Below, piece after piece: positions 6,669 through 57,264 of a stretch of DNA of 64,000 bases. Origin of the DNA: an uncultured Rickettsiales bacterium (GTDB taxonomy: Bacteria > Myxococcota_A > UBA796 > UBA9615 > CAYRNR01); the NCBI GenBank assembly GCA_964558555.1, contig CAZLEO010000005.1, positions 10,968 to 74,967 of the forward strand. Direction: 5' to 3'. Position numbers and translations under genes: made by a program. The notes under the pieces were generated by a model. That model was given only the letters and a program-made list of their open reading frames with translations. It ran no database searches and was not told the DNA's origin. Each line of letters opens with the position of its first letter. Within the stretch, counting starts at the first letter, position 1.

Positions 6669-6686
6669 GGGGGCGAATTGTACTCT

Positions 6687-7460: not shown

Positions 7461-7933
7461 AGATCCTCCCTGGAATCGTCCTGCTGTGCCTCGCCCTGGC
7501 CGGACCCGCCGCGGCCGACGTGGTCGGACCACCCCCCGACCATTGCCCCAACGGCTCGATCCCGGACTCGTCCCACGCCGGGCCTACCTGCTGGCCCTCC
7601 GTGTGTACGACCAACAGCGACTGCTCCGGCGGCGAGGTCTGCGTGGAGCGCGCCCTGTGCGTGGAGCCCGTGAACGGGTTCAGCCACGGCGGTCAGTTCA
7701 CCCTGGACCACGCCGTGACCTCGTGCGACGGCGACAGGCTCTGCCCCCCGGGCGCCACCTGCCAGAGCGACCACCGCTGCATGCCCCGCGCCGCCACGCT
7801 GGTCAAGGACGTGCCCTACACCTCCCTCGCCATCGGCGGCGTGGTGATCGGTGCGGTGTTGCTGATCGGGCTGATCCTGGTCATCCTCATCGGCGTCGTC
7901 GTGTTCAGGCGACGCAACCGGAGGCCCCGTTGA
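7457..7933 (+). CDS. secreted Cys-rich type I membrane protein
   Basis: MKILPGIVLLCLALAGPAAADVV is a signal peptide. It is followed by a 12-Cys extracellular region, a C-terminal TM helix (IGGVVIGAVLLIGLILVILIGVVVF) and a basic tail RRRNRRPR. The start overlaps the upstream stop. Confidence 0.6.
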   Translation: MKILPGIVLLCLALAGPAAADVVGPPPDHCPNGSIPDSSHAGPTCWPSVCTTNSDCSGGEVCVERALCVEPVNGFSHGGQFTLDHAVTSCDGDRLCPPGATCQSDHRCMPRAATLVKDVPYTSLAIGGVVIGAVLLIGLILVILIGVVVFRRRNRRPR

Positions 7934-8742: not shown

Positions 8743-10311
8743 TCAGCGGCGGACGCCGAACTTGCCGAGGATCCGGTTCAGCGCGTAGCTGACCTCCTCC
8801 AGCCCCAGCACCCGCGCCACGGCGAAGTACACCACCCCGAACGCCGACAGCACGATCACCGCCACCGGGATCGGGTGCCAGTCCGGCAGCACGAACAGCA
8901 CGCCGCGCCCCACGGCGGCCGCCGCGACGGCCGCCGCCGCCATCTTCATCGTCGGCAGCAGGCCCGGGCTCACCGCGCCGATCTTCTTGCTCAGGGAGCG
9001 CCGCAGCAGGGTCCACTCCAGCCAGGCCGCCACCCCCGCGCCCAGGCTCAGCCCCAGCGCGCCCAGGGGCTTGCCCTCGATCAGCACCTGGTCGAGACGC
9101 CACATGATCGCCAGCGCGATCCCGGCCGACGTCAGCACCCGCACCAGCGCGATCCGCGCCGGCGTCTTGGTGTCGTGCAGCGCGAAGAACGCCGACGAGA
9201 ACAACCTCGATCCGGTGGATGCCACCAGTCCCACCGAGTACCCGGCCAGCACCAGGTGCACCAGGACGGTGTCTGCCCGGCCGAAGTCCCCTGACTGGTA
9301 CAGCGCCCCCACGATCACGTCGCCCAGCACCAGGTAGCCCAGGCACGACGGCACCACCAGGAACGCGATGCGCCGCAGGCTGGTGTTGATCCGGCTGCGC
9401 AGCACCTCGGCGGCCTCGCCCCGCTTGCGCGACAGCTCCGGCAGCTCGGCCGCGGCCACGGACATGCCGAACAGGCTCACGGGCAACACGTACAGGGTCT
9501 GGGCGTAGCCCAGCACCGCCACCGCGCCGTGGGCCAGCAGCGACGCCAGCACCAGGTCCAGCCACCCACCCACCTGCACCACACCGCGGCCGAGGATGGC
9601 CGGGCCAGCGTTGCGCACCGCCTCGCGCACCCCCTCGAGCTTGAGGTCCCAGCGGATCTTCAGGCTGCGCTCCAGCCGCAGCACCCACGGCACCTGCACC
9701 GCGAACTGCAGCAGCCCGCCCGCCAGCGCACCCCACGCCAGCGCCACCACCAGATCCGCCCGGTCCAGCCGCCCGCCCAGGGTCACCAGCACGCCGATCA
9801 TCGCGGCGTTCCACAGCACCGGCGCCACGTAGGGGATGAAGAACTTGCGGTGGCTGTTGAGGATGCCCAGCGACCACGCGGCCAGCGCCAGCGTGCCCGT
9901 CATGGGGAAGATGATCCGCGTACACGTGATCGTCAGCTCGCGCCGCTCGCCCTCGAACCCCGGCGCGAACACCGTCACGATCACCGGCGCTAGCCCCACC
10001 CCCACCAGCGTCAGCACCCCCACCACGGCGAGCAGCAGCGCGAAGATCGCCCCGGCCACCCGCCCGGCCTCCTCGTGGCGCTTCTGCTCCAGCAGCTCCG
10101 CGTACACCGGGATGAACGACGCGCTCAGCGTCCCCTCCCCCAGCAGGTTCTGCAGCACGTTGGGCATGCGCAGCGCCGCGCGGAACACGTCGGCGAACAT
10201 GGACGTGCCGAAGTAGTGGGCCAGCACGCGCTCGCGCACCAGCCCCGCGAGGCGGGACAGCAGGATCCCGGAAGCCACCATCACGGCGGCGAATCGGCCC
10301 CTCTTGGCCAT
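8743..10311 (-). CDS. murJ: lipid II flippase MurJ (MviN)
   Basis: 522 aa polytopic protein. MAKRGRFAAVMVASGILLSRLAGLVRERVLAHYFGTSMFADVFRAALRMPNVLQNLLGEGTLSASFIPVY is the canonical MurJ N-terminus. Confidence 0.9.
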   Translation of the reverse strand: MAKRGRFAAVMVASGILLSRLAGLVRERVLAHYFGTSMFADVFRAALRMPNVLQNLLGEGTLSASFIPVYAELLEQKRHEEAGRVAGAIFALLLAVVGVLTLVGVGLAPVIVTVFAPGFEGERRELTITCTRIIFPMTGTLALAAWSLGILNSHRKFFIPYVAPVLWNAAMIGVLVTLGGRLDRADLVVALAWGALAGGLLQFAVQVPWVLRLERSLKIRWDLKLEGVREAVRNAGPAILGRGVVQVGGWLDLVLASLLAHGAVAVLGYAQTLYVLPVSLFGMSVAAAELPELSRKRGEAAEVLRSRINTSLRRIAFLVVPSCLGYLVLGDVIVGALYQSGDFGRADTVLVHLVLAGYSVGLVASTGSRLFSSAFFALHDTKTPARIALVRVLTSAGIALAIMWRLDQVLIEGKPLGALGLSLGAGVAAWLEWTLLRRSLSKKIGAVSPGLLPTMKMAAAAVAAAAVGRGVLFVLPDWHPIPVAVIVLSAFGVVYFAVARVLGLEEVSYALNRILGKFGVRR

Positions 10312-10377
10312 CGACGGATCTTCCCCTGTTTCCCTTGTTCAGCGAAAGGGGGGCGGAGGTTATTCCGATCCGCGACA

Positions 10378-11370
10378 ATGGAGCCCATGCGTCGCTGGCT
10401 CATCGGTCTTGGTGTGGTCCTCGCGGGGGTCGTCGTGGCCCTCGCTGCGGTGTACTACGTCGTGCTGCACCCGTGGCTGGCCATGCCCGGCGGGGACCCG
10501 GCCGAGCTCGAGGACCAGTGGCGGGCTGTGGAGGCGTGGGCCCGGCCGGCGGACGCGTGCTACGGCAGCGCGGACCTGCTGATCATGGCGGCGCGGTCCA
10601 TGGAGGCCGTGGACGCGGACGTGCACGACGCGCTCACCGGCGCCGACGGCTGGCCGCCCCAGGTGGCCCACACGGACCTGCCGCCGGAGTTCGACCACGC
10701 GCTGATGAGCCTGCTGCAGTGGCACCTCGACGGCGGCGGCGTGGATCCGGTGGAGCTCGACGAGGCCGTGGGTGCGCTGGCGGTGTTCGAGCTGGGCAAG
10801 GCCGCGGTGGCGTCGGCGGGCTCGGTGGACCCCGCCCTGGTGGAGGAGGCGGTGCTGCGCCTGGGGTGGACCTACCGCGAGTGCGGCCAGATGATCCACG
10901 GCGCCGTCGGCTTCGAGCTGGCCGAGCTCGTCGCCGAGAACGCACAACAGCGCGGCACGTCCCCCACCGAGGTCCACCGCACGTACCGGCCGACCCAGGA
11001 GCAGGTCTTCGGCATCGCCGCCCGCGAGGCCGTGTTCACCCACGAGCTCGCCTCATCCGAGCTCAAGCGCTCCCTGAACTCCCACAACCTCAACGGCGCG
11101 CCGGGCATCGTCCCCGGCCTCGTGGACCCGGACCGGGAGCTGGCCATGCTGCGCCAGTTCTGGGGCTCACGCCTCGCCGCAGCGTCCGTTGATCCAACCG
11201 ACGGCGACCTGCTCGTGCGCCAGTTCGAGGCTGAGCAGGACGACCTGCCCCACTCCCTGGTGGTGCGGATCATCGGCCTGGGCACGGACCACATGCTGAG
11301 CAACCTCGTCGACGGGGTTGCCGAGTACGACGCGTTCTTGAAGGGAGCGGGCGGGCCGGCTCAGAAGTAG
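10378..11370 (+). CDS. hypothetical membrane-anchored protein
   Basis: ATG at 10378 gives MEPMRRWLIGLGVVLAGVVVALAAVYYVVL, an N-terminal TM, followed by a 300-aa soluble domain. GC3 is high. Confidence 0.6.
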   Translation: MEPMRRWLIGLGVVLAGVVVALAAVYYVVLHPWLAMPGGDPAELEDQWRAVEAWARPADACYGSADLLIMAARSMEAVDADVHDALTGADGWPPQVAHTDLPPEFDHALMSLLQWHLDGGGVDPVELDEAVGALAVFELGKAAVASAGSVDPALVEEAVLRLGWTYRECGQMIHGAVGFELAELVAENAQQRGTSPTEVHRTYRPTQEQVFGIAAREAVFTHELASSELKRSLNSHNLNGAPGIVPGLVDPDRELAMLRQFWGSRLAAASVDPTDGDLLVRQFEAEQDDLPHSLVVRIIGLGTDHMLSNLVDGVAEYDAFLKGAGGPAQK

Positions 11371-12062
11371 GTGCCGTCCGCCTCGACGTAGATGTCCGCG
11401 TCCACCCCGTCGTCATCGAGGGTGCCCCAGGCGAAGGGGGTTTCGGCGGCGTGGCTCCACCAGCTGCCCGAAGACTGGACCGGGGGGTCGTAGCACAGCG
11501 ACAGGCACAGCAGCTCGGGGTTCTCGCCGACCATCTCGATGGCCACGAACAGGTACTGGCCGCTGGTGATCTCGATCTCGGGGTAGATGTGCTCGTAGAT
11601 CTCGCGGTCGGACAGGTTGCCGGGGGAGTCCGGGACCTCCATCTCGAACACGGGCAACTCGTCCGCGGGGGGCGACGAGGACGAATCGACGTACAGCCGC
11701 AGGCGGTGGCCCAGGTCCGGGCGGCAGGTCACGCTGCCGGCGCTGCCGCCCTCGAGCAGGTAGCGGATGGACCGCACGCTGAAGGGGTAGCCCTCCGGCG
11801 TGAGCTTCACCGCCGCCCAGAAGCCCACGTCCGTGGTGCCGGGGTACAGGTAGCCCGGGTCGTAGCAGTAGTCGGGGCTGTTGGTCAGGGTGCCGCCGCC
11901 CTGGGGGCCGGTGTCGTCGTCGTCGTCGAGATCGGGCCACTCGTCGGCGGCGGAATCGTCGTCGTTCTCGTCGTCGTCGTTGAGCCAGCAGCCGGTCCCG
12001 GCGAGGCAGAGCAGGCCGGACAGGGCTGCGAGGATGGCGAGGTGTGAGGGCTGGCTGACCAT
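11361..12062 (-). CDS. acidic secreted lipoprotein with poly-Asp linker
   Basis: Start at ATG 12062 gives MVSQPSHLAILAALSGLLCLAGTGCW. It is followed by NDDDENDDDSAADEWPDLDDDDDTG and then a globular domain. Confidence 0.6.
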   Translation of the reverse strand: MVSQPSHLAILAALSGLLCLAGTGCWLNDDDENDDDSAADEWPDLDDDDDTGPQGGGTLTNSPDYCYDPGYLYPGTTDVGFWAAVKLTPEGYPFSVRSIRYLLEGGSAGSVTCRPDLGHRLRLYVDSSSSPPADELPVFEMEVPDSPGNLSDREIYEHIYPEIEITSGQYLFVAIEMVGENPELLCLSLCYDPPVQSSGSWWSHAAETPFAWGTLDDDGVDADIYVEADGTYF

Positions 12063-15848: not shown

Positions 15849-18755
15849 ATGAAGAATCTACGCACGAGATCAGGCCAGATCCGAACGAATGTTCGATCTA
15901 TTTCTACCGGCTGGTTGAAATTCTTGATCCTGCTCGTGGCGTTCGCGCCCCTGCCCGCCGCCGCGGACGCGATCGTGGACGTCGTCGAGGACTCGGGGGA
16001 CCGGATCGTCCTCGAGATCAGCGTCCACGACCTCCACCTCTCCCCCGTGGAGATCGACGGGGACGTCTACTTCGAGGTGTCCCTCGATGGCGAGAGTCCG
16101 CTCAAGCGGGCCGGCGCCCCGGAGCTGCCCACGGTGGCGCGCAGCGTGATCGTCCCATCTGACGGCCGCCTGGCCGTGCAGGTCCTGGACCACGACTCCT
16201 ACGAGATCCCCGACATCGACGTCGTCCCCTCCAAGGGGATCCTGTACCGCACGGTCGATCCGGCGGACGTACCCCACGAGTTCGGCGACGCCTACCTCGA
16301 AGACTCGGACTACCCCGGCGACCTGGTCGCCATGCGCCCCCCCTACGTGCTGCGCGACCGCCGCGGCGTGGTCGTGGAGGCCTACCCGCTGCAGTACAAC
16401 CCGGCCCAGCGGGTGCTCCGCGTGATCGACCGGATGACCGTCGAGGTCACGCGCATCGGCCCCGGCGGCGAGAATGCCCTGCTGGGCGCCCCCGAACGCC
16501 CCAGCGCCGCCTTCGACCGCATCTACGCGAACCACTTCGTCAACGCCGGCGACGAGGACGACGGCCGCTACGCGCCGCTGGACGAGGAAGGCGAGATGCT
16601 GATCATCGCCGCCGACGCGTACCTGTCCAGCGTCGAGCCGCTGGTGGCGCACAAGAACGGCATCGGCATCCCCACCACCGCCGTCGGCGTGGGCTCCATC
16701 GGCAACAGCTCGGGGGCCATCGGCGGGTACATCGCCGACCAGTACGCCTCGAGCAACCTCGCGTTCGTGCTGCTGGTGGGGGACGCGAACCAGGTGGCCA
16801 CGCCGTATGTGGGCTACGCCGCCGCCGACCCCACCTACGCCACCGTCTCGGGCAACGACAACTACCCCGACATCCTCGTGGGGCGGTTCTCCGCCGAGAG
16901 CACCTCCCAGGTGGACACGCAGGTCAGCCGCACCATCGAGTACGAGACGCTCCCCGCCACGGCCCAGTCGTGGTTCCTCAAGGGTATGGGCATCGGCTCG
17001 GAGGAGGGACCGGGCGACGACGGCGAGTACGACTGGGAGCACATCGACCGCATCCGCGGCGACCTGCTCGGCCACGGCTACTCCGAGGTGGACCAGTTCT
17101 ACGGCTACAGCGCCTCGGCCAGCGACGTCCGCAACGCCCTGAACGAGGGCCGCGGCATCGTCAACTACTGCGGCCACGGCTGGGACGGGGGCTGGGTCAC
17201 CACCGGCTTCTCCAACTCCGACGTGAACTCCCTGTCCAACGTCGGCCGCCTGCCGTTCATCGTCACGGTGGGCTGCAACGTGGGCGAGTTCGACCACACC
17301 ACCTGCTTTGCCGAGTCGTGGCTGCACGCCACCAGCGGCAGCTCGCCCACGGGCGCGATCGCGTTCTATGGATCCACCATCAGCCAGTCCTGGGACCCGC
17401 CCATGAGCGCCCAGGACGAGTTCAACGACCTGCTGGTGTCCGAGCAGTACGTCAGCTTCGGCGCCCTGGCCTTTGCCGGCGCGTGCCGGATGATGGACGA
17501 CTACGGCGGGTCCGGGGCCAACGAGTTCAACTACTGGACGATCTTCGGCGACCCGTCCCTGCGGGTGGTCGGGGCGGCCCAGCCCGCGGGTGGGCTGTCC
17601 GTCGAACCCGCCGACGGGTTCTTCACCGAGGGCAGCGCCGGGGGGCCGTTCTCGCCGCCGGACAGGACCTACACCCTGACCAACCACGGCGACCACGCCA
17701 TCGACTACGCGGTCAGCCACGGCCACGGCTGGCTCGAAGTCGACGCCTCGTCGGGGACGCTGCAACCGGGCAGCAGCCGGTCGGTGACGGTGTCCGCCGG
17801 CGGCGAGGCGTACACCCTGGGCAACGGCGCCTACGACGACACGCTGGAGTTCGTCAACACCACCGACCACGAGGGCGACACCAGCCGGACCGCAGCGCTG
17901 ACCATCGGCGTGCCCGAGATCCAGTACGTGTGGAACCTCAACGAGGACCCCGGCTGGACCACCGAGGGGGAGTGGGCCCTGGGCGAGCCGTCCGGCGCCG
18001 GCGGGGAGTACGGCAACCGCGATCCCACGGAGGGGTTCACCGGCCACAAGGTCTACGGGTACAACCTGCACGGCGACTACCCCAACGAGATGGCCGAGCA
18101 GCACCTCACGACCGCGGCCATCGACTGCTCGTTCCTCGACCAGGTGACCCTGCGGTTCTGGCGCTGGCTGGGGGTCGAGTCCAGCGAGTTCGACCACGCC
18201 TACGTCAAGGTCAGCCGCGACGGCCAGGCCTGGTCCACCGTGTGGCAGAACACCGACGAGCTCGCCGACTCCGAGTGGACCCCCCAGGAGATCGACATCT
18301 CCTCCATCGCCGACCGACAGAGCACCGTGTACATCCGCTGGACCATGGGCTCCACGGACGAGGGGTGGCGCTACTGCGGCTGGAACATCGACGACATCGA
18401 GCTGCTCGGCGTGGGCGACGCCGCGTGCTGGGACGCCGACCAGGACGGCTTCACGTCCTCGGAATGTGGCGGCGACGACTGCCAGGACGACGCCTACGAC
18501 ATCCGCCCGAACACCTACGAGGTCTGTGACGACCTCATGGACAACAACTGCGACGGCCTGGTGGACGCCATGGACCCGGGCTGCGGCGGTGGGGGCGGGG
18601 GCACCGAGGAGGGCGAGGCCGGGTACGAGGCCGGCTGCTCGTGCCGCGCCGACGACGACGCTCCGACGGCTCCCTGGGCCGCGATCGCCCTGGCGGCCGC
18701 ACTCACTGCAATCCGGCGGCGCCGCCACTCGACGGCAAGGGAGGAGGGGGGCTGA
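15849..18755 (+). CDS. clan CD cysteine peptidase, C25 (gingipain)-like, with propeptide, Ig-like/CARDB-type domains, Cys-rich metal-binding-type repeat and MYXO-CTERM-like tail
   Basis: IIAADAYLSSVEPLVAHKNGIGIPT, LLVGDANQVATPYVGY, YPDILVGRFSAES, VNYCGHGW and TVGCNVGEF resemble gingipain family blocks. The C-terminus has CWDADQDGF..CGGDDCQDD..CDDLMDNNCDGLVD and then GCSCRADDDAPTAPWAAIALAAALTAIRRRR. The alternative TTG start at 15915 gives a cleaner signal peptide (MKFLILLVAFAPLPAAADA). Confidence 0.65.
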   Translation: MKNLRTRSGQIRTNVRSISTGWLKFLILLVAFAPLPAAADAIVDVVEDSGDRIVLEISVHDLHLSPVEIDGDVYFEVSLDGESPLKRAGAPELPTVARSVIVPSDGRLAVQVLDHDSYEIPDIDVVPSKGILYRTVDPADVPHEFGDAYLEDSDYPGDLVAMRPPYVLRDRRGVVVEAYPLQYNPAQRVLRVIDRMTVEVTRIGPGGENALLGAPERPSAAFDRIYANHFVNAGDEDDGRYAPLDEEGEMLIIAADAYLSSVEPLVAHKNGIGIPTTAVGVGSIGNSSGAIGGYIADQYASSNLAFVLLVGDANQVATPYVGYAAADPTYATVSGNDNYPDILVGRFSAESTSQVDTQVSRTIEYETLPATAQSWFLKGMGIGSEEGPGDDGEYDWEHIDRIRGDLLGHGYSEVDQFYGYSASASDVRNALNEGRGIVNYCGHGWDGGWVTTGFSNSDVNSLSNVGRLPFIVTVGCNVGEFDHTTCFAESWLHATSGSSPTGAIAFYGSTISQSWDPPMSAQDEFNDLLVSEQYVSFGALAFAGACRMMDDYGGSGANEFNYWTIFGDPSLRVVGAAQPAGGLSVEPADGFFTEGSAGGPFSPPDRTYTLTNHGDHAIDYAVSHGHGWLEVDASSGTLQPGSSRSVTVSAGGEAYTLGNGAYDDTLEFVNTTDHEGDTSRTAALTIGVPEIQYVWNLNEDPGWTTEGEWALGEPSGAGGEYGNRDPTEGFTGHKVYGYNLHGDYPNEMAEQHLTTAAIDCSFLDQVTLRFWRWLGVESSEFDHAYVKVSRDGQAWSTVWQNTDELADSEWTPQEIDISSIADRQSTVYIRWTMGSTDEGWRYCGWNIDDIELLGVGDAACWDADQDGFTSSECGGDDCQDDAYDIRPNTYEVCDDLMDNNCDGLVDAMDPGCGGGGGGTEEGEAGYEAGCSCRADDDAPTAPWAAIALAAALTAIRRRRHSTAREEGG

Positions 18756-18756
18756 G

Positions 18757-21300
18757 ATGTCCAGGCTGATCCTCGCGTGGGCGGCGATGGCCCTGCTGCT
18801 GGGGTGCTCCGAGGACCCGGTCCTCGACGACGACGACACCACGGCTGGCGACGACGACGACAACCCCTGCGTCCCGGACGTGGAGGGGCTGATCCAGGAG
18901 TACGACCTGGCCGAAGAAGTGGAGGTCGTCTACGACGAGATGGGCGTGCCCCACATCTACGCCCAGAGCGACCTGGACCTGTTCTGGGCGGCGGGCTACC
19001 TCGTGGCCTCGGACCGCCTGTTCCAGATGGACATCCTGCGGCGGGCCTCGGTGGGCACCCTGGCCGAGGTGATCGGCGAGGAGGGCCTGGAGTCGGACTA
19101 CCAGGCCCGCACCCTCGACTTCGACCGCTACAGCTGCGAGATCCTGGCCATGCACGTCGAGGAGGGGGTGGACGACGTCAACGGCTCGGCCGCGTACATG
19201 TCGGGGATGAACCACTTCGTCGAGGAGGTGCTGGCCGGTGAGGCCGAACTGCCCGCCGGGTACACCACGCTGGACTTCGAGCCCACGCCGTTCGTCCGCG
19301 ACGACCTGGTGGCCCTGGGCATGCGGCTGAACTTCGCATTCTCCAACACCCTGTTCCCCGACCTGTTCTACGCCGCGTTCGACGTGCTCGCGCCGGCAGC
19401 GGGCGACCCCACGGTCCCGGTGTTCCGCCCGGCGACCGAGGACTTCGTCATGGTGGACGATCCCCCGCCCTCCCCTCCCCCGGCCGCCGGGGGGCCCCAC
19501 CCGGGCGCGGCGCGCGTGGCCACGGAGGATCCCGACGCCTGGCTGGCCATGCTCGACGCCGCCGCCCGCTTCAACCACCGCTGGGGTTTCAACCGCGGCT
19601 CCAACAACTGGGCCCTGGGCGGAGAACACACCGCCGACGGCAGGCCGATCATCGCCGGCGATCCCCACTCGTACCTCGCCGATCCCAGCTACCTGTACCT
19701 GCAGCACCTCAACTCCGCTGACGCGGGCGGCACCTACGACGTGATCGGCTACAGCTTCGCCGGCACCCCCGGGGTGCACCTGGGCCACAACCGCCACCTC
19801 GTGTGGGCCGCCACCACCAACTTCGCCGACGCGGTGGACGTGTGGGACGTGGTCGTTCAGGACGACGAGGTGCTCGTCGGCGACCAGTGGGTGGAGATGA
19901 CCAAGCGTACCGAGATCATCCACGTGCGCCAGGAGGACGGCTCGATGCACGAGCAGCCCTTCGTGGTGCGCACCGTCGGCGAGTACGGCACGCTCGTGCC
20001 CCAGGAGATGCTGCCGCTGCCCATGGAGCTGTTCGCCAACGGCGACCTGATGCTGAACTGGACCGGGTTCACCCCCACGTCGGGGCTCAAGCTGTACCTG
20101 AGCGCCAACCGCGCCGAGGACCTGGCCGACTTCGAGGCCGCGGTGGAGTACCAGAAATCCGGCATCCAGAACTGGGTCGGCGCCACGGCCGACGACATCC
20201 TCTACGTCACCCACGGCCTGGTCCCCGACCGCGGCGCGGTGACCCCGCCGGCCTACCAGGTGCTCGACGGCAGCGATCCCGACACCCTGTGGGAGGGCTG
20301 GCTGGGCGACGAGGTGATGCCGCGGCTCGACGGTTCCGACGGGTTCGTCTACACGGCCAACAACGATCCCTACGGCCACACCGCGGACAACGATCCCCTC
20401 GACGACGACTTCTACTACGGCAGCTGGTTCGCGCCGGGCTTCCGCGCCGGCCGTATTCGCCAGGAGATCGACGCGCTGGTGGACCAGGGCGACGTCACCC
20501 TGGAGCAGGTCATGGCCATGCAGACCTCCACGACCAGCGACGCGGCGGTGCGGATGGTGCCCGTCCTGGCCGAGGCCGTGGCTGCGATCCCCACCGATCC
20601 CGATCTGGCCGAGTACGTGGACCGCACCGACCTGATCGATGCGGCCGCGCGCCTGGAGGCCTGGGACCGCCAGATGACGCTGGACGCGTTCGAGCCGGCC
20701 CTGTTCCGCGCCTGGTTCACCACGCTGCAGCGATCCACCGTGTCCGACGATCTGGGGTTGCTGTTCGACGCCGTGGAGGAGCTCCAGCCGATCATCCTCG
20801 AAAAAGTCACCGTGCTGGCCTACGAGGACTCCATCGAGTCGGTGCTCGACGGCAGCCGCAACACGACCCTGGTCGCCGCCCTCGACGAGGCGCTGGAGTA
20901 CGTCGGGCGACGGGCCGAGGACCTCGGCGTCGACGAGGTCGCGTGGGGCGATCTGCACATCGCGTCCTTCGACACCGACTACGTCACCTACTACGACTTC
21001 GACTACGGCGACGACACGCGCATCGCCTGGGCCGGGGACGCCACGTCGATCAACGTGGCCGAATGCCACTTCTGGGACGGCAGCGATCTCGCCGATCACT
21101 GCGTGGGAGAGTTCGGCCCCATCTTCCGATCCGTCGCGCGCTTCGACGACGACGGCGTACCCGAGTACTGGACCAGCTGGCCCTTCGGCCACGACGGCGA
21201 CGCCACGTCGTGGGTCGAGGGCAGCTACACTCACCTGCCGTTCAGCCGGCAGGACGTGGACGCGCGGGCGGTCTCCACGGTGATCCTGGCGCCCGAATGA
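18757..21300 (+). CDS. penicillin acylase family Ntn-hydrolase (penicillin amidase / AHL-acylase-like) lipoprotein
   Basis: ATG 18757 follows AAGGGAGGAGGGGGG. Lipobox MSRLILAWAAMALLLGCSEDP, then a poly-Asp linker. GVPHIYAQSDLDLFWAAGYLVASDRLFQMD and the beta-subunit nucleophile block NRGSNNWALGGEHTADGRPIIAGDPH are S45/penicillin acylase hallmarks. Confidence 0.85.
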   Translation: MSRLILAWAAMALLLGCSEDPVLDDDDTTAGDDDDNPCVPDVEGLIQEYDLAEEVEVVYDEMGVPHIYAQSDLDLFWAAGYLVASDRLFQMDILRRASVGTLAEVIGEEGLESDYQARTLDFDRYSCEILAMHVEEGVDDVNGSAAYMSGMNHFVEEVLAGEAELPAGYTTLDFEPTPFVRDDLVALGMRLNFAFSNTLFPDLFYAAFDVLAPAAGDPTVPVFRPATEDFVMVDDPPPSPPPAAGGPHPGAARVATEDPDAWLAMLDAAARFNHRWGFNRGSNNWALGGEHTADGRPIIAGDPHSYLADPSYLYLQHLNSADAGGTYDVIGYSFAGTPGVHLGHNRHLVWAATTNFADAVDVWDVVVQDDEVLVGDQWVEMTKRTEIIHVRQEDGSMHEQPFVVRTVGEYGTLVPQEMLPLPMELFANGDLMLNWTGFTPTSGLKLYLSANRAEDLADFEAAVEYQKSGIQNWVGATADDILYVTHGLVPDRGAVTPPAYQVLDGSDPDTLWEGWLGDEVMPRLDGSDGFVYTANNDPYGHTADNDPLDDDFYYGSWFAPGFRAGRIRQEIDALVDQGDVTLEQVMAMQTSTTSDAAVRMVPVLAEAVAAIPTDPDLAEYVDRTDLIDAAARLEAWDRQMTLDAFEPALFRAWFTTLQRSTVSDDLGLLFDAVEELQPIILEKVTVLAYEDSIESVLDGSRNTTLVAALDEALEYVGRRAEDLGVDEVAWGDLHIASFDTDYVTYYDFDYGDDTRIAWAGDATSINVAECHFWDGSDLADHCVGEFGPIFRSVARFDDDGVPEYWTSWPFGHDGDATSWVEGSYTHLPFSRQDVDARAVSTVILAPE

Positions 21301-24099: not shown

Positions 24100-24336
24100 T
24101 CACAGGGAGATCTCGGCATGCTCCTTGATCGCGAGTATCACCTCGCGCAGCCCGTCATTCATCAGCTGGATCACATTCCAGGGGCCATGCTCGTCCGACG
24201 GCTGCCACCAGTAGGGGAATCCTGGTGAACCGGAATTCTCACGGATCACCAGGGCATCGTGGCGATTCGCGCGGATGGCGTAGGGTTTGAGTACGACCTC
24301 GAACCAGAGTCTCCCTTCATGCACGTACAGCCCCAT
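24100..24336 (-). CDS. small hypothetical protein (78 aa), last gene of the AAA+/polymerase operon
   Basis: MGLYVHEGRLWFEVVLKPYAIRANRHDALVIRENSGSPGFPYWWQPSDEHGPWNVIQLMNDGLREVILAIKEHAEISL has coding-like codon usage but lower GC than its flanks. It lies immediately downstream of the polymerase-like gene. Confidence 0.35.
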   Translation of the reverse strand: MGLYVHEGRLWFEVVLKPYAIRANRHDALVIRENSGSPGFPYWWQPSDEHGPWNVIQLMNDGLREVILAIKEHAEISL

Positions 24337-24362
24337 CCACGCCCAGTTGTCCCCTTCGTGTT

Positions 24363-27239
24363 TCAGATGGAAAAGGCTACCCCCAACACCTCCACTTCTC
24401 GACCGGCACGCTGCTCGGCCGACCACTCCTCCACCTCCGGCAGTACCGCATCGAGCTGTGTTGCCTTCACCTCGAACATCACCTCCTGCCCCGTCTCCCG
24501 ATCGTCGTACATCTTCTCGGCCACGGTGATCAGGCCGTCCACACCGGCGCTCACGGCCGCCCTGGTACAGCCAAAGACGTCAAGCGCTCCCGATGCGGCG
24601 AGGTTCGCCATCTGAGCGCGACCAAGACAGCCGGGAGTCACCTGCGAGAGCCAGGAGAGGAGCCCCTGCGCGACGTTTCCCTCCTCCCTTGCCAGCACCA
24701 GTGACTCGGCGGTCTTGTCGGTCACACCCCGGACCATGGCCAGGCCCAGACGTACACCGCCGTCCTCGACCGTGTTGTGCACGCCGCTTCGGATGACGTC
24801 CGGTGCGAGCAACTCGACGCCGGCCTTGCGCATGTCCTCGGCGACGCGGCGGACCTGCCGACGGTCGCGGGAAACACTCGAGAGGAGCGCGGCAAAGAAC
24901 GAGGCCGGGTGATGGGCCTTGTGCCAGGCCAGCTTGCAGGCCTTGAGGGCGAGGCTGGCGACCGAGGCGCGGGAGAGGGTGTAGCGGGTCCAGCGGCCGA
25001 GCCACTCCCACACACACCAGGCTGGTTCGGTGGCGACGTCGCGCCGCGAGGCCTGGCCGATGAACCGCTCGGCCGCGGCCTCGAGCTCCTCGCCTCGGCC
25101 GCGGCCGAGGGCGCGGACGATGGGCCACGTCTCGCCATGGTCGAGGCGGGCGAGGGAGGACAGGATCTCCATGGCCTGCTCCTGGTAGAGCAGGACACCG
25201 CGGGTGTGGTCGAGGGGGCCCGCGACGAGGTCGGTGGCAGGGCCGAGGTCGCCCAGGAGGCCGTCGCCGGTGGTGTAGGCCGCGAGGAGCCCGGCGTCGA
25301 TGGGGCCGCGGCGACCGAGCGCGACGGCGGCCATGAGTTCTTCGGTGTCCGTGGGGCCGATCGCGGTGAGGGCGCGGCGAGCGAGGGGATCGCCGAGGGA
25401 TGAGATACCCAGGGTGTTGCCGCGGCCGAGCAGCTCCTGGACGGCCGGGTCCGTCGGCAGCGCGACGGCACAGTCGTCCCAGCCCGGCACGGGCCCGCCA
25501 CGCTCGGCGAGGAGCGCATCGACGCGCGCGGTGAGCTCGACATCATCCTCGCCGACGAGCTCGAAGACGGCGTGGCGGGCTTGTACGAGGGAGCGGGGGT
25601 CGTACTCGACGAGGCCCGCGCCGGACTCCGATCGCCGCACCGGCAGCGGGGGCTCGACGGGGTGGTCCACCACGGCGAACGCCGACTCGTGTTCGTCGAT
25701 GCCGTACGGGCAGCCGTCCAGCGTCGCGAAGCGGCCGGTGATCTCGACGAGCTCTTGTAGCCGGTCGTGCACCCGGGCGATCGGGCGGCCGAAGGGACGG
25801 GCGCGGCCCGCGGCAGCCCGCCAGGACTCGGTCAGCGCCTCCAGGCGTAGGCCGACCTCGTCCGGCCCCAGGTCCAGCGCGGCCATGGCCCCATCCACGA
25901 GGCCGCGGCCGCCGAGGACGGACCTGCGCGCCGGCCGCACGACGCGAAATCCATACCCCAGCTCCCTCACGACACATTCGACGACGCGATCGATCTGCGA
26001 GGGATGGATGTCCAGGAGGATCGGCCTCGGTTCGTGCCCGGGGTCCAGGTAACGCTCCGACAGCAAGTCGTACATCCGAGGGTTCACGCCGGTCACGCCG
26101 AGGGCGTACAGGACCGCGGCGGAGACGCCGGGCCCCCTGCCGGGGCCGACGGGGATGCCGGCCTCGCGGCAGGCGCGCACCACGCGGTGGGCGAGGAGGA
26201 ATCGCGCGCCCTCGGGGGGTTCGACGAGGGCATCGAGTTCCCAGTCCAGCGCGGCCGAGAGGTCGGCGCTGACCTCCTCGAAACGGGACAGGGGGACATC
26301 CCTGCGCAGGGCCACGATGTGCTCCGACAACCCCTCGCGAGCGGCCCGCTCGAACGCCGCCAGCCGCTCCTTTCGTTGCCAGCACGGCCTGGGAGGGACG
26401 ATCAAGGCTTGTGAGGGCCGGAGCTGGCACCGTTCGACCAGTGCGTCGGTCGCCCGTAACGCGTCGGCGTCCTCGGCAAAGGCGAAGGCCATGTCCACCG
26501 GATCGCGCAGGAAGAAGCCGTGGCTGGGCATGACCGGGCTGTCCACGTCCCCGAGCCGGCGGCCCCGGTCGATACACGACATGACCTGGTAGCCGAGGGC
26601 GTCCTCGGGCCGGAGGTAGTGGACCGGGTTGGTCACCACGAGGCCCAGCCCCAGCCGCTCGGCGATCTGCCGCTGGCCCTCGTTGACCCCGTGCTGGTTG
26701 TACTCGCCCGTGACCTGGATCTCGAGGTGGACGTTGTGGCGCCCGAACACGTCGGACAGGGCGCGCGCGGCCAGGGTAGCGGCGCCGGGACGGTCCGCGC
26801 TGAGCAGCGCGCCGATCTCTCCGTGGACGTTCGCCGACAGCGCCAGCAACCCGTGTCGGTGGTCGCACAGCTGATCCCAGTCCACCGCGAGAGACGACTC
26901 CCACATCCCGCGGCGGGCCAGACCCACCAGCTCACACAGGCTGCGAAAGCCCCTCGGATTCCGCGCGATCAGCACCAGCGCGTAGCTCTTGCGGCGCCGG
27001 GAGGCGGGATCACGGGGCCGCACGCGGATCTCCATGCCGACGATGGGCTGGACGCCGATCTCCCGGGCGCAGCGCATGAACTCGGGGACGCCGGCCAGGC
27101 TCCACTCGTCGGTGACGGCCACGGCCCTCGAACCCTGCGCCGCCACGGCCGCCACCAGATCCTCGATGCGCACCGTGGACCTCATCCGCGAGTGGTGCGT
27201 GTGCACGTGCAGGTGGACGAAGCCACGGTCGGCGCTCAT
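24363..27239 (-). CDS. DNA polymerase III alpha (DnaE)-family PHP-domain protein, short (958 aa), lacking the C-terminal OB/tau-binding region
   Basis: The start MSADRGFVHLHVHTHHS is a PHP motif. GPGRGPGVSAAVLYALGVTGVNPRMYDLLSERYLDPGHEPRPILLDIHPSQ matches the DnaE GPGRGSAAGS...PDFDVDF palm region, but the catalytic Asp pair is replaced by LLDIHP. LLYQEQAMEIL and KACKLAWHKAHHPASFFAALLS are DnaE-like. The start codon overlaps the upstream stop (ATGA). Confidence 0.8.
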   Translation of the reverse strand: MSADRGFVHLHVHTHHSRMRSTVRIEDLVAAVAAQGSRAVAVTDEWSLAGVPEFMRCAREIGVQPIVGMEIRVRPRDPASRRRKSYALVLIARNPRGFRSLCELVGLARRGMWESSLAVDWDQLCDHRHGLLALSANVHGEIGALLSADRPGAATLAARALSDVFGRHNVHLEIQVTGEYNQHGVNEGQRQIAERLGLGLVVTNPVHYLRPEDALGYQVMSCIDRGRRLGDVDSPVMPSHGFFLRDPVDMAFAFAEDADALRATDALVERCQLRPSQALIVPPRPCWQRKERLAAFERAAREGLSEHIVALRRDVPLSRFEEVSADLSAALDWELDALVEPPEGARFLLAHRVVRACREAGIPVGPGRGPGVSAAVLYALGVTGVNPRMYDLLSERYLDPGHEPRPILLDIHPSQIDRVVECVVRELGYGFRVVRPARRSVLGGRGLVDGAMAALDLGPDEVGLRLEALTESWRAAAGRARPFGRPIARVHDRLQELVEITGRFATLDGCPYGIDEHESAFAVVDHPVEPPLPVRRSESGAGLVEYDPRSLVQARHAVFELVGEDDVELTARVDALLAERGGPVPGWDDCAVALPTDPAVQELLGRGNTLGISSLGDPLARRALTAIGPTDTEELMAAVALGRRGPIDAGLLAAYTTGDGLLGDLGPATDLVAGPLDHTRGVLLYQEQAMEILSSLARLDHGETWPIVRALGRGRGEELEAAAERFIGQASRRDVATEPAWCVWEWLGRWTRYTLSRASVASLALKACKLAWHKAHHPASFFAALLSSVSRDRRQVRRVAEDMRKAGVELLAPDVIRSGVHNTVEDGGVRLGLAMVRGVTDKTAESLVLAREEGNVAQGLLSWLSQVTPGCLGRAQMANLAASGALDVFGCTRAAVSAGVDGLITVAEKMYDDRETGQEVMFEVKATQLDAVLPEVEEWSAEQRAGREVEVLGVAFSI

Positions 27240-29374
27240 CCCCCGAACCCCACGCGCGGGCTCGACGGCCGCCGGTATCCCAGCTCCTGTTGCAGCTCGT
27301 CGGCGAGGACCTCGGGGCTGGACTCGCCGTGAATCTCCGCGCCCCGGCGGACCGCGGCGAAGTCGCCCGGCGTCAGCCCGTCCAGCGCCGCGATCCGCGG
27401 ACGCAGCCTGTCCAGCGCCCCCGCACTCGGTTCGATCGCCAGCTCGCCCAGCACACGCTCGAACATGCGCCAGCGCTGCTCGCCCGTGAGCGGATCGAAC
27501 CGCACCTTGATCGCGAAGCGTCGGAACACCGCCTGGTCGAGGTCGTCGATGAGGTTCGTCGCCGCCACGAACACCCCGTCGAATGCCTCGATCCCCACCA
27601 GCAACTCGTTCACCTGGGTGACCTGCCACGACGCCCTGGCGAGGCGGCGGTCGCGCAGGAAGGAGTCGGCCTCGTCCAGCAGCAGCACGCCGCCGTCGTC
27701 CCGAGCCTGCTCGAACATGCCGGCGATGGCCATCTCGGTCATGCCCACGTAGGGGCCGAGCAGATCCGAGGCGCGGCGGACCAGCAGCGGGCGGTCCAGG
27801 GTCCGAGCGAGCTCCCCCGCCCACATGGACTTACCCACTCCGGGCGGGCCGTAGAGGCACACCGATCCCCGCGCCCCACGGACCAGCCCCTGCGTCACCG
27901 CGGTCAGATCACACGAGGTGTTGACCAGCGCGTGGTCGAACCTACCGCTCGCGACCGCCCGAGGCGGTCGGGCGCGATGCCCCCGGGCCCGCAGGCTGCC
28001 GTCGACGATGCGCTCGAACGTGTCCTCGGCGATCGCGGCGTCCGAGGGCGCGATCCCGCCGAGGACCGCCGCCGCCCGTGCGATGTCCGCTGGCGCCAGC
28101 CGTTCATCCTCGGCGACCTCGTCGAGCCAGCGGTCGCGCACGGGCGCCTTGACGAGGGCGCGGCGGAGCATCTCGCGCCGCACCGACCGCGGCGGCTTGC
28201 GCACCTCCACGACCAGGTCGAAGCGCCTCACCACCGCGGGATCCATCTGGTCGATGCGGTTGCCCATCCACACCGTGGGGACGGGGTTGGTCTCGATCAG
28301 CCGGTTCACGAACGCCTTCTGGCGACTGCCGTTTTTCTGGGCCAGCAGGTGGATGTCGTCGAGGAAGATGTCCTCGAGCTCGTCGAAGAGCACGACCACG
28401 CCGCGGCGATCGCGCAGGATCTGCTGGCGCAGACGGTACGACGACAGCCGGGCCGTCCGCCCGGCGGCCTCCCCCCCCAGCGTCACCTCCGGGACCTCGA
28501 AGGCCCGCACACCGAGGTGTGTCGCCAGGGCACGAGAAATCTGGGTCTTTCCCACGCCGGGATCACCGAAGAGCAGCACGTTGACCCCCGGACGCCCCTC
28601 ACGCGTGGCTGCAGCGAGGTAGTCGCACAGGGTCTCGACGTCGCGGCGCAGGTGGGGGAACCGTTCCAGGGGCACCTCGGGCGGAGGAGCCTCCTGGAGC
28701 AGGCGCGCCTCGAGCTCGGTCGGAGACGTCGCCTCGTTCTCCAGGGCTGCCTGGAGCTGGTCCGTCAGGGCCAGGTGGATGTCCGTCGAGTACAGCGAGT
28801 ACTCGACCTCGATCAGGCCGGCATTGAGCAGCGTCCCTTCGGGGCGCAGCGCCGCCGAGATCTCCTTGGCCGGACGGGAGAGCATGATCGAGGTCATCTC
28901 GACCAGCCCGCGGACACCGTTGCGGCCCAGCTCGCCGTAGGACTGCAGGCAGCTGTTCACCCCCGGCTCCACATACGCCATCGCCGCCAGGGCGAAGATG
29001 TCGCGATCCACACCACCCAGCTGCAGGGCGTCGGCGAGCCACTGGGCGTTGCGCTCCACCGTGGCCAGCGCATCGCCACGGGCGCCGGCCGGCAGGAGGG
29101 GGAGCTCTCCGCGGGAGGCCAGCCTCTCCAGCTTCGACAGGCGCCGCGCCACCGCGCGCCGGACGCGATCCGGCTCCTCTAGGGCGTCGAGGGACCGCAT
29201 GTCCACGCCTGCGGTCAGCCAGACCTCGAGGCGCAGGGCGTGCCGGGGGCCGCTGAGGATGCGGCACAGCTTCTCGTGGTGGATCGCCCGCAGGATCCAC
29301 AGGGCGATCCGATGCAGCCCGCCCTGCCAGCGAATTCGAGTCTGGACACCCTTGCTCCTGGTCTTCGCGGCCAT
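27236..29374 (-). CDS. tandem AAA+ ATPase (two AAA modules; the second is classic AAA with SRH)
   Basis: VNVLLFGDPGVGKTQ followed by VVVLFDELEDIF; then VCLYGPPGVGKSM followed by VLLLDEADSFL and VFVAATNLIDDLDQAVFRRF. The start is taken at ATG 29374 (MAAKTRSKG) with GGAG upstream; an alternative GTG lies at 29392. Confidence 0.8.
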   Translation of the reverse strand: MAAKTRSKGVQTRIRWQGGLHRIALWILRAIHHEKLCRILSGPRHALRLEVWLTAGVDMRSLDALEEPDRVRRAVARRLSKLERLASRGELPLLPAGARGDALATVERNAQWLADALQLGGVDRDIFALAAMAYVEPGVNSCLQSYGELGRNGVRGLVEMTSIMLSRPAKEISAALRPEGTLLNAGLIEVEYSLYSTDIHLALTDQLQAALENEATSPTELEARLLQEAPPPEVPLERFPHLRRDVETLCDYLAAATREGRPGVNVLLFGDPGVGKTQISRALATHLGVRAFEVPEVTLGGEAAGRTARLSSYRLRQQILRDRRGVVVLFDELEDIFLDDIHLLAQKNGSRQKAFVNRLIETNPVPTVWMGNRIDQMDPAVVRRFDLVVEVRKPPRSVRREMLRRALVKAPVRDRWLDEVAEDERLAPADIARAAAVLGGIAPSDAAIAEDTFERIVDGSLRARGHRARPPRAVASGRFDHALVNTSCDLTAVTQGLVRGARGSVCLYGPPGVGKSMWAGELARTLDRPLLVRRASDLLGPYVGMTEMAIAGMFEQARDDGGVLLLDEADSFLRDRRLARASWQVTQVNELLVGIEAFDGVFVAATNLIDDLDQAVFRRFAIKVRFDPLTGEQRWRMFERVLGELAIEPSAGALDRLRPRIAALDGLTPGDFAAVRRGAEIHGESSPEVLADELQQELGYRRPSSPRVGFGG

Positions 29375-29422
29375 GGTCCGTCTCCGCTTCACCCTGGGTT
29401 CGGACCTAGCGTAGCCGCGCTA

Positions 29423-29441
29423 TTGGACACATAATGTCCAA
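29423..29441. promoter_or_regulatory. perfect inverted repeat TTGGACA-cataa-TGTCCAA in the divergent promoter region; candidate WYL-regulator operator
   Basis: tattggacacataatgtccaaaac is a 7-bp perfect inverted repeat with a 5-nt spacer containing CATAAT. It lies between the AAA+ operon start and the WYL gene start at 29460. Confidence 0.5.
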
Positions 29442-29459
29442 AACGAATGGAGTGTCCCC

Positions 29460-30389
29460 ATGCCCCACGAAGAGAGCGTCCGTAGGAGTGTGGACGTCCT
29501 GCTCCGTGCTCAGGAGACAGGTCCTGGCGGCATACTCCTGCACGCTCTCGCCTCGGAGTGGGACGTCCACGAACGCACCGTCCGCCGCCTGGCCGCGGCC
29601 GCCGTGGAAGCCTCGGAGCGCCACACCTCGGCCGGACGCCTCGCCCGCGTCGGACGCGGCCGCACCGCTCGCCTCGTCTGGACCCCTGCCCTACCCTCCC
29701 GCGACGTGCACGCCACCGAGGCGTTGGCCTTGCTGGCCGCCACCGGTCCCTGGCGAAGTCTGGGCCACGACGACATCGCCGACACCCTCGACCGCCTCCT
29801 CGCCGCAGCCAGCCGGGACGCTCGAGCGGTGCGACGACGCGACCTGGATCGCCTCGCCCGCACCGGCTTCTGGTACCAGCCCTTCGGCCGCCGCCCCCAC
29901 CTCGATCCCGACGCCCTCGACCAGGTACTGAGCGCCCTGCTGTACAGCGCCGTCCTCCACGTGGGCCGCTACAGCTCCCCCGAAGAGCCCGCTCGCTCGC
30001 TGGATCTGGAGGTCCACAGCGTCGTCCACGCGTACGACGGCATTTACGTCCTCGGCCCCGAGATCGGCTCCGATCGCGGCCCCCAGATGTGGGCCGTGCA
30101 CCGCATGACCGATACCCGCTTCGACCGCAGCCGCCGCTACACCGTCCCTCCCGACCACGATCCCGCCACCTACCTCGGCCACGGCTACGGCCCCTTCCTC
30201 GGCACGGAGGGCGAGACCGAACTGTTCGTGCCCGACGACGAGGCCGACTACGTGATGGAGTACGAGCTGCCGTCGCAGATCGGAGCGCCCCGCCGCGTCG
30301 ACGGGGGCTGGGAGGTCACCCTGGACACCGGCGTGACGTGGGGGATGCGGCTGTGGTGCCGGTGGATGGGGGTGGAGATCGTGGGCTAG
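29460..30389 (+). CDS. WYL domain transcriptional regulator (wHTH-WYL-WCX; BrxR/CapW/PafBC-like)
   Basis: N-terminal HTH (LHALASEWDVHERTVRRL). The WYL-like core is ARSLDLEVHSVVHAYDGIYVLG...VHRMTDTRFDRS. The C-terminal WCX-like block is WEVTLDTGVTWGMRLWCRWMGVEIVG. Confidence 0.7.
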   Translation: MPHEESVRRSVDVLLRAQETGPGGILLHALASEWDVHERTVRRLAAAAVEASERHTSAGRLARVGRGRTARLVWTPALPSRDVHATEALALLAATGPWRSLGHDDIADTLDRLLAAASRDARAVRRRDLDRLARTGFWYQPFGRRPHLDPDALDQVLSALLYSAVLHVGRYSSPEEPARSLDLEVHSVVHAYDGIYVLGPEIGSDRGPQMWAVHRMTDTRFDRSRRYTVPPDHDPATYLGHGYGPFLGTEGETELFVPDDEADYVMEYELPSQIGAPRRVDGGWEVTLDTGVTWGMRLWCRWMGVEIVG

Positions 30390-56595: not shown

Positions 56596-56603
56596 GGCGT
56601 CTC

Positions 56604-57212: not shown

Positions 57213-57248
57213 CTCGCCCTCTTTCACGACTGGTTCTACCGTCTGGGC

Positions 57249-57264
57249 TGGACAGCGGTTGTCA
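57249..57264. promoter_or_regulatory. inverted repeat TGGACA-gcggt-TGTCA in the SWIM/WYL divergent promoter region; candidate operator
   Basis: ctggacagcggttgtcacc shares the GGACA-N5-TGTC core with the palindrome at 29423-29441. Confidence 0.4.

Follow-up and report, generated by a model that had tools for sequence, protein, structure and literature searches.

A WYL-regulated operon joining a tandem AAA+ ATPase to a catalytically inactivated DnaE homologue: a candidate conflict or DNA-stress module

What might a bacterium do with a DNA polymerase III alpha homologue that is encoded directly behind a tandem AAA+ ATPase and lies divergent from a WYL-type regulator? The question is raised by a group of genes in a 64,000-nucleotide (nt) stretch of contig CAZLEO010000005.1 (positions 10,968 to 74,967), from an uncultured bacterium placed by GTDB in the Myxococcota_A; this whole stretch, which has a GC content of about 70%, is called the window below. 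The group consists of a 309 amino acid (aa) wHTH-WYL-WCX transcription regulator (29460..30389, plus strand; from the listing of open reading frames (ORFs) and their translation), a 712 aa tandem AAA+ ATPase (27236..29374, minus strand), and a 958 aa DnaE homologue without an OB domain, apparently catalytically inactivated (24363..27239, minus strand). Our preferred reading, on balance, is that this module is a rare variant of a widespread two-gene cassette of a WYL regulator and an IGF-tailed tandem AAA+ ATPase, which would serve as a mobile element of conflict (anti-phage) or of DNA stress and would carry a swappable third gene, here the DnaE homologue. The cassette is most likely a phage-defence or DNA-damage module rather than a polymerase. 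All of the evidence is computational, and the clade of dead polymerases is tiny.

In the polymerase homologue, Pfam identifies the domains PHP, palm (DNA_pol3_alpha), fingers and HHH_6 in that order, with no match to the OB domain PF01336. The order of PHP, palm, thumb, fingers and beta-binding HhH regions, together with a QxxLF site, is common to this protein and to DnaE1 and DnaE2, from which it differs in lacking the catalytic aspartates and the OB and tau-binding domains, in its degenerate PHP site, and in scores that reach at most 45% of the family cut-offs. These scores are 446 against a cut-off of 1002 for DnaE1 (PRK05673) and 260 against 939 for DnaE2 (PRK05672); it falls below every DnaE1, DnaE2 and PolC cut-off of NCBIfam, and TIGR00594, the superfamily model, gives 405.9 against 434.35.

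Individual residues were mapped by HMMER alignments to the alpha subunits of E. coli and Taq and by a MAFFT alignment with nine DnaE1 sequences, using the three members of the family that are described below. A degenerate palm segment, RPILLDIHPS (25998..26027, minus strand), takes the place of MPDIDIDF, so that in each of the three members a gap or Ile stands for E. coli D401 and Leu for D403 (Taq D463 and D465). The third catalytic aspartate, E. coli D555, is a Glu within VFELVG (25551..25568, minus strand), which replaces KMDFLG. In the same three proteins KMDFLGL has become VFELVGE, GRGSAAGS has become GRGPGVSA, and HAAGVVI has become HESAFAVV, while substitutions affect five of nine PHP metal ligands (Asp by Arg, the His of TDH by Glu to give TDE, His by Ala or Gln, Cys by Asn, and the Asp of TND by Pro to give TNP). 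What has been kept is an internal beta-clamp-binding motif of the QxxLF type, GQEVMF (24474..24491, minus strand), which aligns with the GQxSLF of DnaE1 and reads GQELLF and GQCGLF at the homologous position of the orthologues. The protein ends about 35 residues further on, at E.E.LG, a motif that DnaE1 has before its OB fold; it thus lacks both the OB and the tau-binding domains, the cut lying exactly ahead of the OB fold in all three members. Judged by these residues, the 958 aa homologue is catalytically dead, and it is predicted to bind the beta clamp.

An ordinary dnaE or dnaE2 was rejected on the family cut-offs, the catalytic residues and the missing domains, and an ImuA-ImuB-DnaE2 mutasome on the low DnaE2 score and on finding no ImuA/RecA-like or Y-family gene within 10 kb; over the same distance imuA, imuB, dnaN and tau genes are all missing. 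An earlier note on this DNA, made from the letters of the sequence, had already argued that the gene was neither the replicative dnaE nor part of a mutasome, and had spoken of a degenerate scaffold. Both statements agree with the low scores, the loss of the catalytic aspartates, the dead palm, the degenerate PHP site, the missing OB and tau-binding domains, the retained clamp motif and the absence of ImuA and ImuB nearby. The note had also allowed that proper alignment might yet reveal an ordinary second dnaE with its catalytic residues in place; these are absent from all three members.

Very few relatives of this protein have been found. A word-indexed search of 5.8 billion proteins gave just two, P0049 (66% identity) and P0050 (48%), followed by ordinary DnaE1 proteins; when 1.84 billion cluster representatives were searched exhaustively with HMMER, two 50%-identity clusters likewise emerged, at 1872 and 1739 bits, with the next match, an ordinary DnaE1 of about 30% identity, at 496 bits. 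Against bacterial DnaE1 the identity is 29-31% (375 bits), and against OB-less phage DnaE-like proteins about 26% (224 bits). A metagenome scan for further relatives with two patterns that proved unspecific, FVHLHVHT and LSANVHGE, found just ordinary DnaE1 loci. The three polymerase-bearing lineages, those of the window and of the loci L004 and L007, have one layout of divergent regulator, ATPase and polymerase, and the stop codon of the ATPase overlaps the start codon of the polymerase as ATGA in the window, as the earlier note had said, and in L004, with a 3-nt gap in L007. The three polymerases are 48-66% identical, with a mean column identity of 73%, more than 300 invariant columns, no frameshifts and a GC content at third codon positions (GC3) of 0.89. 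An intact reading frame at such identities and with such a GC3 argues for purifying selection, and for a maintained gene and not a relic. One further OB-less DnaE, the 986 aa P0288 (L098, 201-3161), keeps the acidic catalytic positions (PELD, KLDFL) and has a clamp motif, GQMGLF; it was considered as a relative of the dead polymerases and set aside, as it falls outside their clade and stands alone on a 4-kb contig without context.

By ATPase identity, L008 goes with the window and L004, and L093 with L007. The polymerase is thus found on both sub-branches of the ATPase, each of which also includes a relative without it: L008 has the regulator and ATPase alone, and L093 has the regulator, the ATPase and a conserved 255 aa protein, here called X. 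Between the sub-branches the polymerases diverge by 49% and the ATPases by 45%. This matching divergence, together with the presence of the polymerase on both sides, favours a polymerase that was ancestral and has been lost twice, and the polymerase-less relative on each side marks it as an accessory of the cassette. Protein X is 255-303 aa long (L007, 6353-7264; L093, 5553-6452), with 56% identity between the two loci and no Pfam match; its gene comes after that of the polymerase in L007, stands immediately behind the ATPase gene in L093, and is absent from the window lineage.

The ATPase, a member of the classical clade, consists of an N-terminal helical and winged-helix domain followed by two AAA domains, D1 and D2, both matched by PF00004, in keeping with the tandem AAA+ assignment of the earlier note. 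An alignment of 16 family members shows the Walker A and B motifs, the sensor-1 Asn and the Arg-Arg fingers to be invariant in both domains; the Walker A sequences are GDPGVGKT in D1 (28544..28567, minus strand) and GPPGVGKS in D2 (27827..27850, minus strand). D2 also has a pore-loop-1 triplet, YVG (27743..27751, minus strand), found by family comparison within SDLLGPYVGMTE. The family pattern here is SDL...[YWF]VG..E, and 69 of 79 members from the GTDB loci have an aromatic-hydrophobic-Gly triplet ([YWF]-[VL]-G) at this point; D1 is without an aromatic pore loop. The nearest solved structures are those of VAT, p97/Cdc48, NVL and Afg2. Two classical-clade AAA domains with intact motifs and an aromatic D2 pore loop are shared with p97/Cdc48, VAT and NVL, and the ATPase is accordingly best pictured as a probable double-ring hexameric unfoldase. 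Its N-domain, a helical bundle plus winged helix, differs from the double-psi barrel of the p97-type unfoldases, and the lack of an aromatic pore loop in D1 sets it apart as well.

A further difference from these unfoldases, and also from IetA of the IetAS defence system, is a C-terminal [IVML]GF tail specific to this family. Family comparison places it at the VGF of 27245..27253 (minus strand), and G709 and F710 are invariant among the 16 aligned members; of 58 full-length members (the relatives in L013-L092 included), 55 carry an xGF among roughly their last 10 residues, and in 41 of them it is IGF. ClpX, ClpA and ClpC dock on ClpP by means of a tripeptide of the IGF form, which they carry in a loop. 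The tripeptide is thus of the form seen in the Clp/Hsp100 partners of ClpP, though here it sits in the C-terminal tail and not in the canonical surface loop; a speculative possibility is that it docks a partner such as ClpP. D2 resembles IetA (PADLOC E = 3e-33; NCBIfam IteA E = 1e-30), which, unlike the tandem ATPase, has a single AAA domain and a protease partner, IetS. Membership in IetAS was rejected, the IteA score being 107 against a cut-off of 510 and confined to D2, with no protease gene in the operon. The earlier note had also raised a CbbX-like Rubisco activase or other housekeeping AAA protein; there is no such family match and no Rubisco context, and the family recurs instead near WYL, Sir2, DUF2779, BREX and integrase genes. 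RefSeq names the protein just "ATP-binding protein".

The window regulator has no Pfam or NCBIfam match of its own. Its AlphaFold2 model, with a predicted local distance difference test (pLDDT) score of 75, gives as best Foldseek match DriD (8tpk_B, E = 1.6e-13), over the full length and 319 of 326 columns, followed by PafBC, CapW and BrxR; a PDB sequence search with the regulator profile gave no match. The L007 orthologue, 67% identical, does match the WYL model PF13280 (26.1 bits, cut-off 21.8), and that of L008, 71-72% identical, comes slightly under the cut-off at 20.4 bits. A precomputed PF13280 match exists for 10 of 16 clusters of the regulator family, and hhalign finds the family profile collinear with annotated WYL-WCX regulators. 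A second regulator in the window (57306-58319), which carries HTH_11, WYL and WCX domains above their cut-offs, is 24% identical to the first over 283 aa (BLASTP, E = 7e-13). Since orthologues, in-window paralogue and fold search agree, the assignment to the wHTH-WYL-WCX family made in the earlier note can be regarded as confirmed, at the level of a structural model and its relatives. DriD, PafBC, CapW and BrxR have the same three-domain fold over the full length, likewise lie divergent from or adjoining their presumed target genes, and have a palindromic operator in their own promoter region. The window protein, on the other hand, is just 12-23% identical to them and too diverged for the Pfam WYL model, and an operon of tandem AAA+ ATPase and dead DnaE has not been reported as their target. 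Members of this family sense single-stranded DNA (ssDNA) and govern DNA-damage or defence genes (PMC11662680, PMC12041258, PMC9122601).

Between the regulator and the ATPase lies a divergent intergenic region of 85 nt (29375..29459), or 67 nt if the ATPase starts at an upstream GTG; its ATG start is supported by the orthologues, which keep an "MA.." N-terminus. A pattern scan and orthologue comparison have identified here an operator-like inverted repeat, TTGGACA-CATAA-TGTCCAA (29423..29441). The earlier note had described a perfect palindrome in a spacer of some 70 nt: the repeat is real, with 7-nt arms and a 5-nt spacer. This is the single copy in the window at 0 mismatches, and shuffled sequences lead one to expect 0.08 matches per window at up to 2 mismatches. 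The exact core TGGACA-N5-TGTCCA is found in the regulator/ATPase spacer of the same-genome contigs L001-L003 and of the orthologous L004-L006, L008 and L009, and in none of 89 other, unrelated loci compared; degenerate copies occupy the same position in L007 and L093. The repeat has thus been kept, with a variable spacer, in all four other lineages that have an orthologous regulator, making five with the window: TTGGACATTATGTGTCCAG in L004, CTGGACCATATGTGTCCAA in L007, TTGGACACGATATGTCCAA in L008 and TTGGACAGATACGGTCCAA in L093. That the regulator would be divergent from the ATPase-polymerase operon across a conserved operator, as first proposed, is borne out.

Alignment by eye of four orthologous spacers reveals a conserved -10-like TAnnCT element (TAcGCT, TAgGCT or TAtCCT) about 9 nt from the repeat on the ATPase side, which may belong to the operon promoter; consensus scans for sigma-70 promoters and for terminators yielded no usable match in DNA of 70% GC. 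Toward the regulator, some 15-20 nt separate the repeat from the start codon, with the ribosome-binding site coming directly after the repeat. The geometry of this putative operator fits repression by occlusion and activation of the class II or sigma-adaptation type alike. Two other repeats in the window have the same half-site: CTGGACA-GGGGT-TGTCCAG (62433-62451), between genes for a MoxR-like protein and a phosphatase, and CTGGACA-GCGGT-TGTCAC (~57245-57262), some 45-60 nt ahead of the gene for the second WYL regulator. Both probably serve that second regulator as operators, and cross-talk between the two WYL regulators of the window is conceivable.

In contrast to the polymerase, the ATPase belongs to a large family, with at least 501 confirmed stretches in GTDB species-representative genomes (Gamma- and Betaproteobacteria, Myxococcota and others) at up to about 45% identity to the window protein, and it is carried by six IMG/VR viral contigs. 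Among the 80 loci whose neighbourhoods were examined, a WYL-WCX gene is found within 10 kb in 31, mostly adjacent; a DUF2779 (Cas4/RNase-H-like) gene lies directly downstream of the ATPase in about 11, and RecQ is nearby in 7. A DnaE-like gene stands beside the ATPase in none of the 80. Conservation of the neighbourhood, which the earlier note had proposed to check, therefore holds for the WYL-ATPase pair and not for the polymerase.

On the Sphaerotilus sulfidivorans plasmid pSna507 (L095, pSna507_unt13, 5679-11554) the order is WYL, ATPase, Sir2 (with a 4-nt overlap), MavL macrodomain and dual-specificity phosphatase, adjoining the pglZ and brxD genes of a BREX-2 system and then MoxR and VWA genes. 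Diaphorobacter has ATPase, DUF2779 and WYL genes beside HipA and further WYL genes, and in a Methylomonas plasmid the ATPase is followed by RtcB. Other neighbours are Hen1 (L024), GGACT (L032 and L010), an integrase (L015) and NOV_C (L016), and the L093 pair has two integrases with an excisionase on one side and an island of helicase, DUF6361, BrxE and BrxA genes on the other. The conserved core is the regulator plus the ATPase, and the third gene varies, the operon position of the polymerase being taken in other family members by Sir2 or by a DUF2779 nuclease-like protein.

The following sequence of events can be proposed for the window module. A dimer of the wHTH-WYL-WCX regulator would bind the observed repeat, TTGGACA-N5-TGTCCAA, where it would overlap the divergent promoters. 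An ssDNA or related nucleic-acid cue arising from damage or phage replication might then switch the regulator and turn the operon on, as suggested by the analogy to DriD, CapW and BrxR; induction by ssDNA or damage is an expectation taken from these relatives (PMC11662680, PMC12041258). The ATPase would form a double-ring hexamer whose D2 threads proteins by means of its YVG pore loop, the motifs for this being in place, and the [IVML]GF tail could, more speculatively, dock a partner such as ClpP. As polymerisation has been lost while the clamp motif and the body of the protein have been kept, the dead DnaE, translationally coupled to the ATPase, looks like a module for targeting the replisome or the clamp, to which its palm, thumb, fingers, HhH region and clamp motif would direct it. 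It might occupy clamps and primer ends and stall replication as a dominant-negative effector, or it might, as an adaptor or bait, deliver to the unfoldase such host or phage proteins as sit on the clamp or bind the polymerase. Taken to its furthest, the proposal would make the dead DnaE a weapon or sensor with no enzymatic role, loaded onto beta clamps or primer ends, or else a DnaE mimic that baits phage factors which hijack the replisome. Whatever had bound would then be extracted or destroyed by the IGF-tailed unfoldase, possibly via ClpP, and the whole would amount to immunity or a checkpoint that is gated by the WYL regulator and acts on the replisome itself; this fuller version is put forward tentatively, as a possibility that may well prove wrong.

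The earlier note's suggestion of an undescribed defence or damage-response module is supported by the dead polymerase, by the contexts of the WYL-ATPase family, and by PADLOC, which gave domain-level matches to IetA, TRIP13 and DolB for the ATPase and none for the other module proteins; a known defence system was rejected on this PADLOC result. Several observations weigh against the cassette reading. The predicted clamp binding, hexamer formation and ClpP docking are each read from short motifs; the top structural match of the regulator, DriD, is an ssDNA-activated activator of the DNA-damage response and not a defence repressor; the neighbours in the window are peptidases, a penicillin amidase, a short-chain dehydrogenase/reductase (SDR) and a methyltransferase, with no obvious defence island and no flanking integrase or tRNA gene; the polymerase has no PADLOC model, and the ATPase has domain-level matches only. 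Many of the ATPase loci are, in addition, without an obvious third gene, and the ATPase may act alone, its variable neighbours being unrelated cargo of islands.

WYL regulators serve in defence and in damage response alike, so that the two readings overlap. A conflict system is favoured by the Sir2, BREX and integrase contexts; the handling of DNA stress is favoured by a regulator like DriD, by RecQ, DUF2779 and UvrD as neighbours, and by the ordinary chromosomal surroundings in the window. If the latter were the whole function, the dead DnaE would, under DriD/PafBC-like activation by ssDNA, be an ImuB-like clamp hub at stalled forks, from which the unfoldase strips stalled Pol III or other proteins in the manner of p97/Cdc48. 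This has real points in its favour, in that the closest structures to the regulator are the damage activators DriD and PafBC, the repeat lies just upstream of the -10-like element, as would suit a class II or "sigma adaptation" activator, and the context in the window is chromosomal and housekeeping-like; relatives of the ATPase are found near RecQ (in the 7 loci above), DUF2779 exonuclease-like proteins, a NERD-UvrD helicase and RecB-like nucleases, and the combination of dead polymerase, clamp motif and ATPase has a precedent in ImuA-ImuB (PMC6511836). The Sir2, MavL macrodomain, BREX, integrase, Fic, HipA, Hen1 and RtcB neighbours are, however, typical of conflict systems, the distribution is patchy and mobile, the module encodes no catalytic translesion polymerase, and the absence of the polymerase from close relatives and its restriction to two 50%-identity clusters are unlike core repair. 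We consider a pure tolerance or repair function less likely than the preferred reading, though a serious competitor.

Far less probable is a surviving enzymatic activity of the homologue, whether as a polymerase with substitute ligands (D410, H412 and E560) or as a PHP phosphoesterase or nuclease, with the ATPase as its loader or chaperone. The three residues are invariant in all three members, D410 aligning with E. coli D405, the PHP domain keeps its HxH, Glu70 and His207, and the fingers motif YQEQ is kept. Against this, the protein has neither of the two PDxD aspartates that E. coli and Taq alpha cannot do without, shows changes in the GRGS and HAAG motifs for triphosphate binding and substitutions at five of nine PHP ligands, and fails to reach even the PolC/DnaE superfamily cut-off. 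We give hardly any credence to the gene being a decaying second dnaE or a remnant of a phage DnaE that lies behind an unrelated ATPase with no joint function. The catalytic residues and C-terminal domains are indeed gone, phage DnaE-like polymerases match over a similar span of ~950-975 aa, and close ATPase relatives do without the polymerase. Yet the reading frame is full-length and free of frameshifts in three lineages at 48-66% identity, with strong codon bias and its 300 and more invariant columns; it occupies the same place behind the ATPase in all three, with a stop/start overlap or the 3-nt gap; its divergence of 49% tracks the 45% of the ATPase between sub-branches; the clamp motif has been selectively kept; and the protein is nearer to bacterial DnaE1 than to phage DnaE, in both identity and bits.

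The closest conceptual precedent for the preferred reading, that of a cassette with a dead DnaE as its third gene, is ImuB, a dead polymerase fold that has kept its clamp motif, is found beside a partner of ATPase fold and is under stress control (PMC6511836). The window protein differs in being of the C family and not the Y family, and its module in having a tandem AAA+ ATPase in place of the RecA-like ImuA, a WYL regulator in place of LexA, and an operon without a catalytic polymerase. Dead-polymerase scaffolds are thus known from the Y family, and a conserved, clamp-hooked dead DnaE coupled to an unfoldase would show the core of the replisome repurposed as a targeting device. A second parallel is SocB of the SocAB toxin-antitoxin system of Caulobacter, which, in the work of Aakre et al. 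in Mol Cell in 2013, reportedly blocks replication by means of a beta-clamp-binding motif and has its level set by the AAA+ machine ClpXP. The likeness to SocAB is conceptual only, SocB being small, not a polymerase homologue, and without sequence relationship to the module.

Two systematic surveys of bacterial C-family polymerases describe four groups only, DnaE1-3 and PolC (PMC3919608, 2014; PMC12926913, 2026). A search of these two texts by term gave no catalytically dead C-family group, inactivation being named only for the PHP domain and for polymerases outside the C family. Literature searches also found no description of a module of WYL regulator, tandem AAA+ ATPase and dead DnaE. What appears undescribed, and new, is thus the dead C-family polymerase, in an operon of an otherwise known, WYL-regulated stress or defence type. 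If the reading is right, the C family would have its first dead polymerase with a function of its own, and the module would be the founding example of a large WYL and tandem-AAA+ defence family with swappable effectors (Sir2, DUF2779 and dead DnaE). The ATPase family itself, with more than 500 GTDB stretches and with WYL, Sir2 and DUF2779 partners and at times BREX, may credibly be put forward as a defence or stress system not yet described. Members occur in the cultivable hosts Sphaerotilus, Diaphorobacter, Ralstonia and Vitreoscilla, and the pSna507 operon offers a cultivable model.

Turning to the remaining features of the locus, the four ORFs listed in the earlier note are all present at its coordinates, and genes called independently on three metagenomic contigs from this organism agree with them. 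The fourth is a 78 aa ORF 3' of the polymerase gene (24100..24336, minus strand), which the note had counted as a member of the operon. It is lineage-specific, with no family match in Pfam, NCBIfam or PADLOC and, by tblastn, matches only on contigs of the same genome. The genes 3' of the polymerase encode 78 aa in the window, 103 aa in L004 and 303 aa in L007 and are mutually unrelated, so that operon membership was not upheld, and the ORF probably does not belong to the module. It also has a GC3 of 0.76, whereas the regulator, ATPase and polymerase genes, at 0.88-0.90, match the remainder of the window. In L002, an assembly from this organism, the ATPase gene is seemingly split into 492 and 196 aa (~9128-9167); a real frameshift was rejected here, as the break is an artefact of scaffolding in which a gap is filled with N and bordered by junk sequence.

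The stretch at 15849-21300, upstream of the module, encodes a penicillin amidase and a gingipain-like C25 peptidase that carries BACON and MopE metal-binding motifs, and on the other side of the module are M28 and M55 peptidases; these surroundings, rich in secreted proteases, are unrelated to the module.

A second WYL module occupies positions 56600-63916 of the window. In addition to its HTH_11-WYL-WCX regulator, compared above (57306-58319, plus strand), it comprises a MoxR-like AAA ATPase (60861-62393, minus strand), a 563 aa protein with no Pfam match (58316-60007, minus strand), a SWIM zinc-finger protein (56604-57428, minus strand), a histidine phosphatase (62503-63006, plus strand) and a Fic protein (63017-63916, minus strand). 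In this composition it resembles a MoxR-type conflict system.

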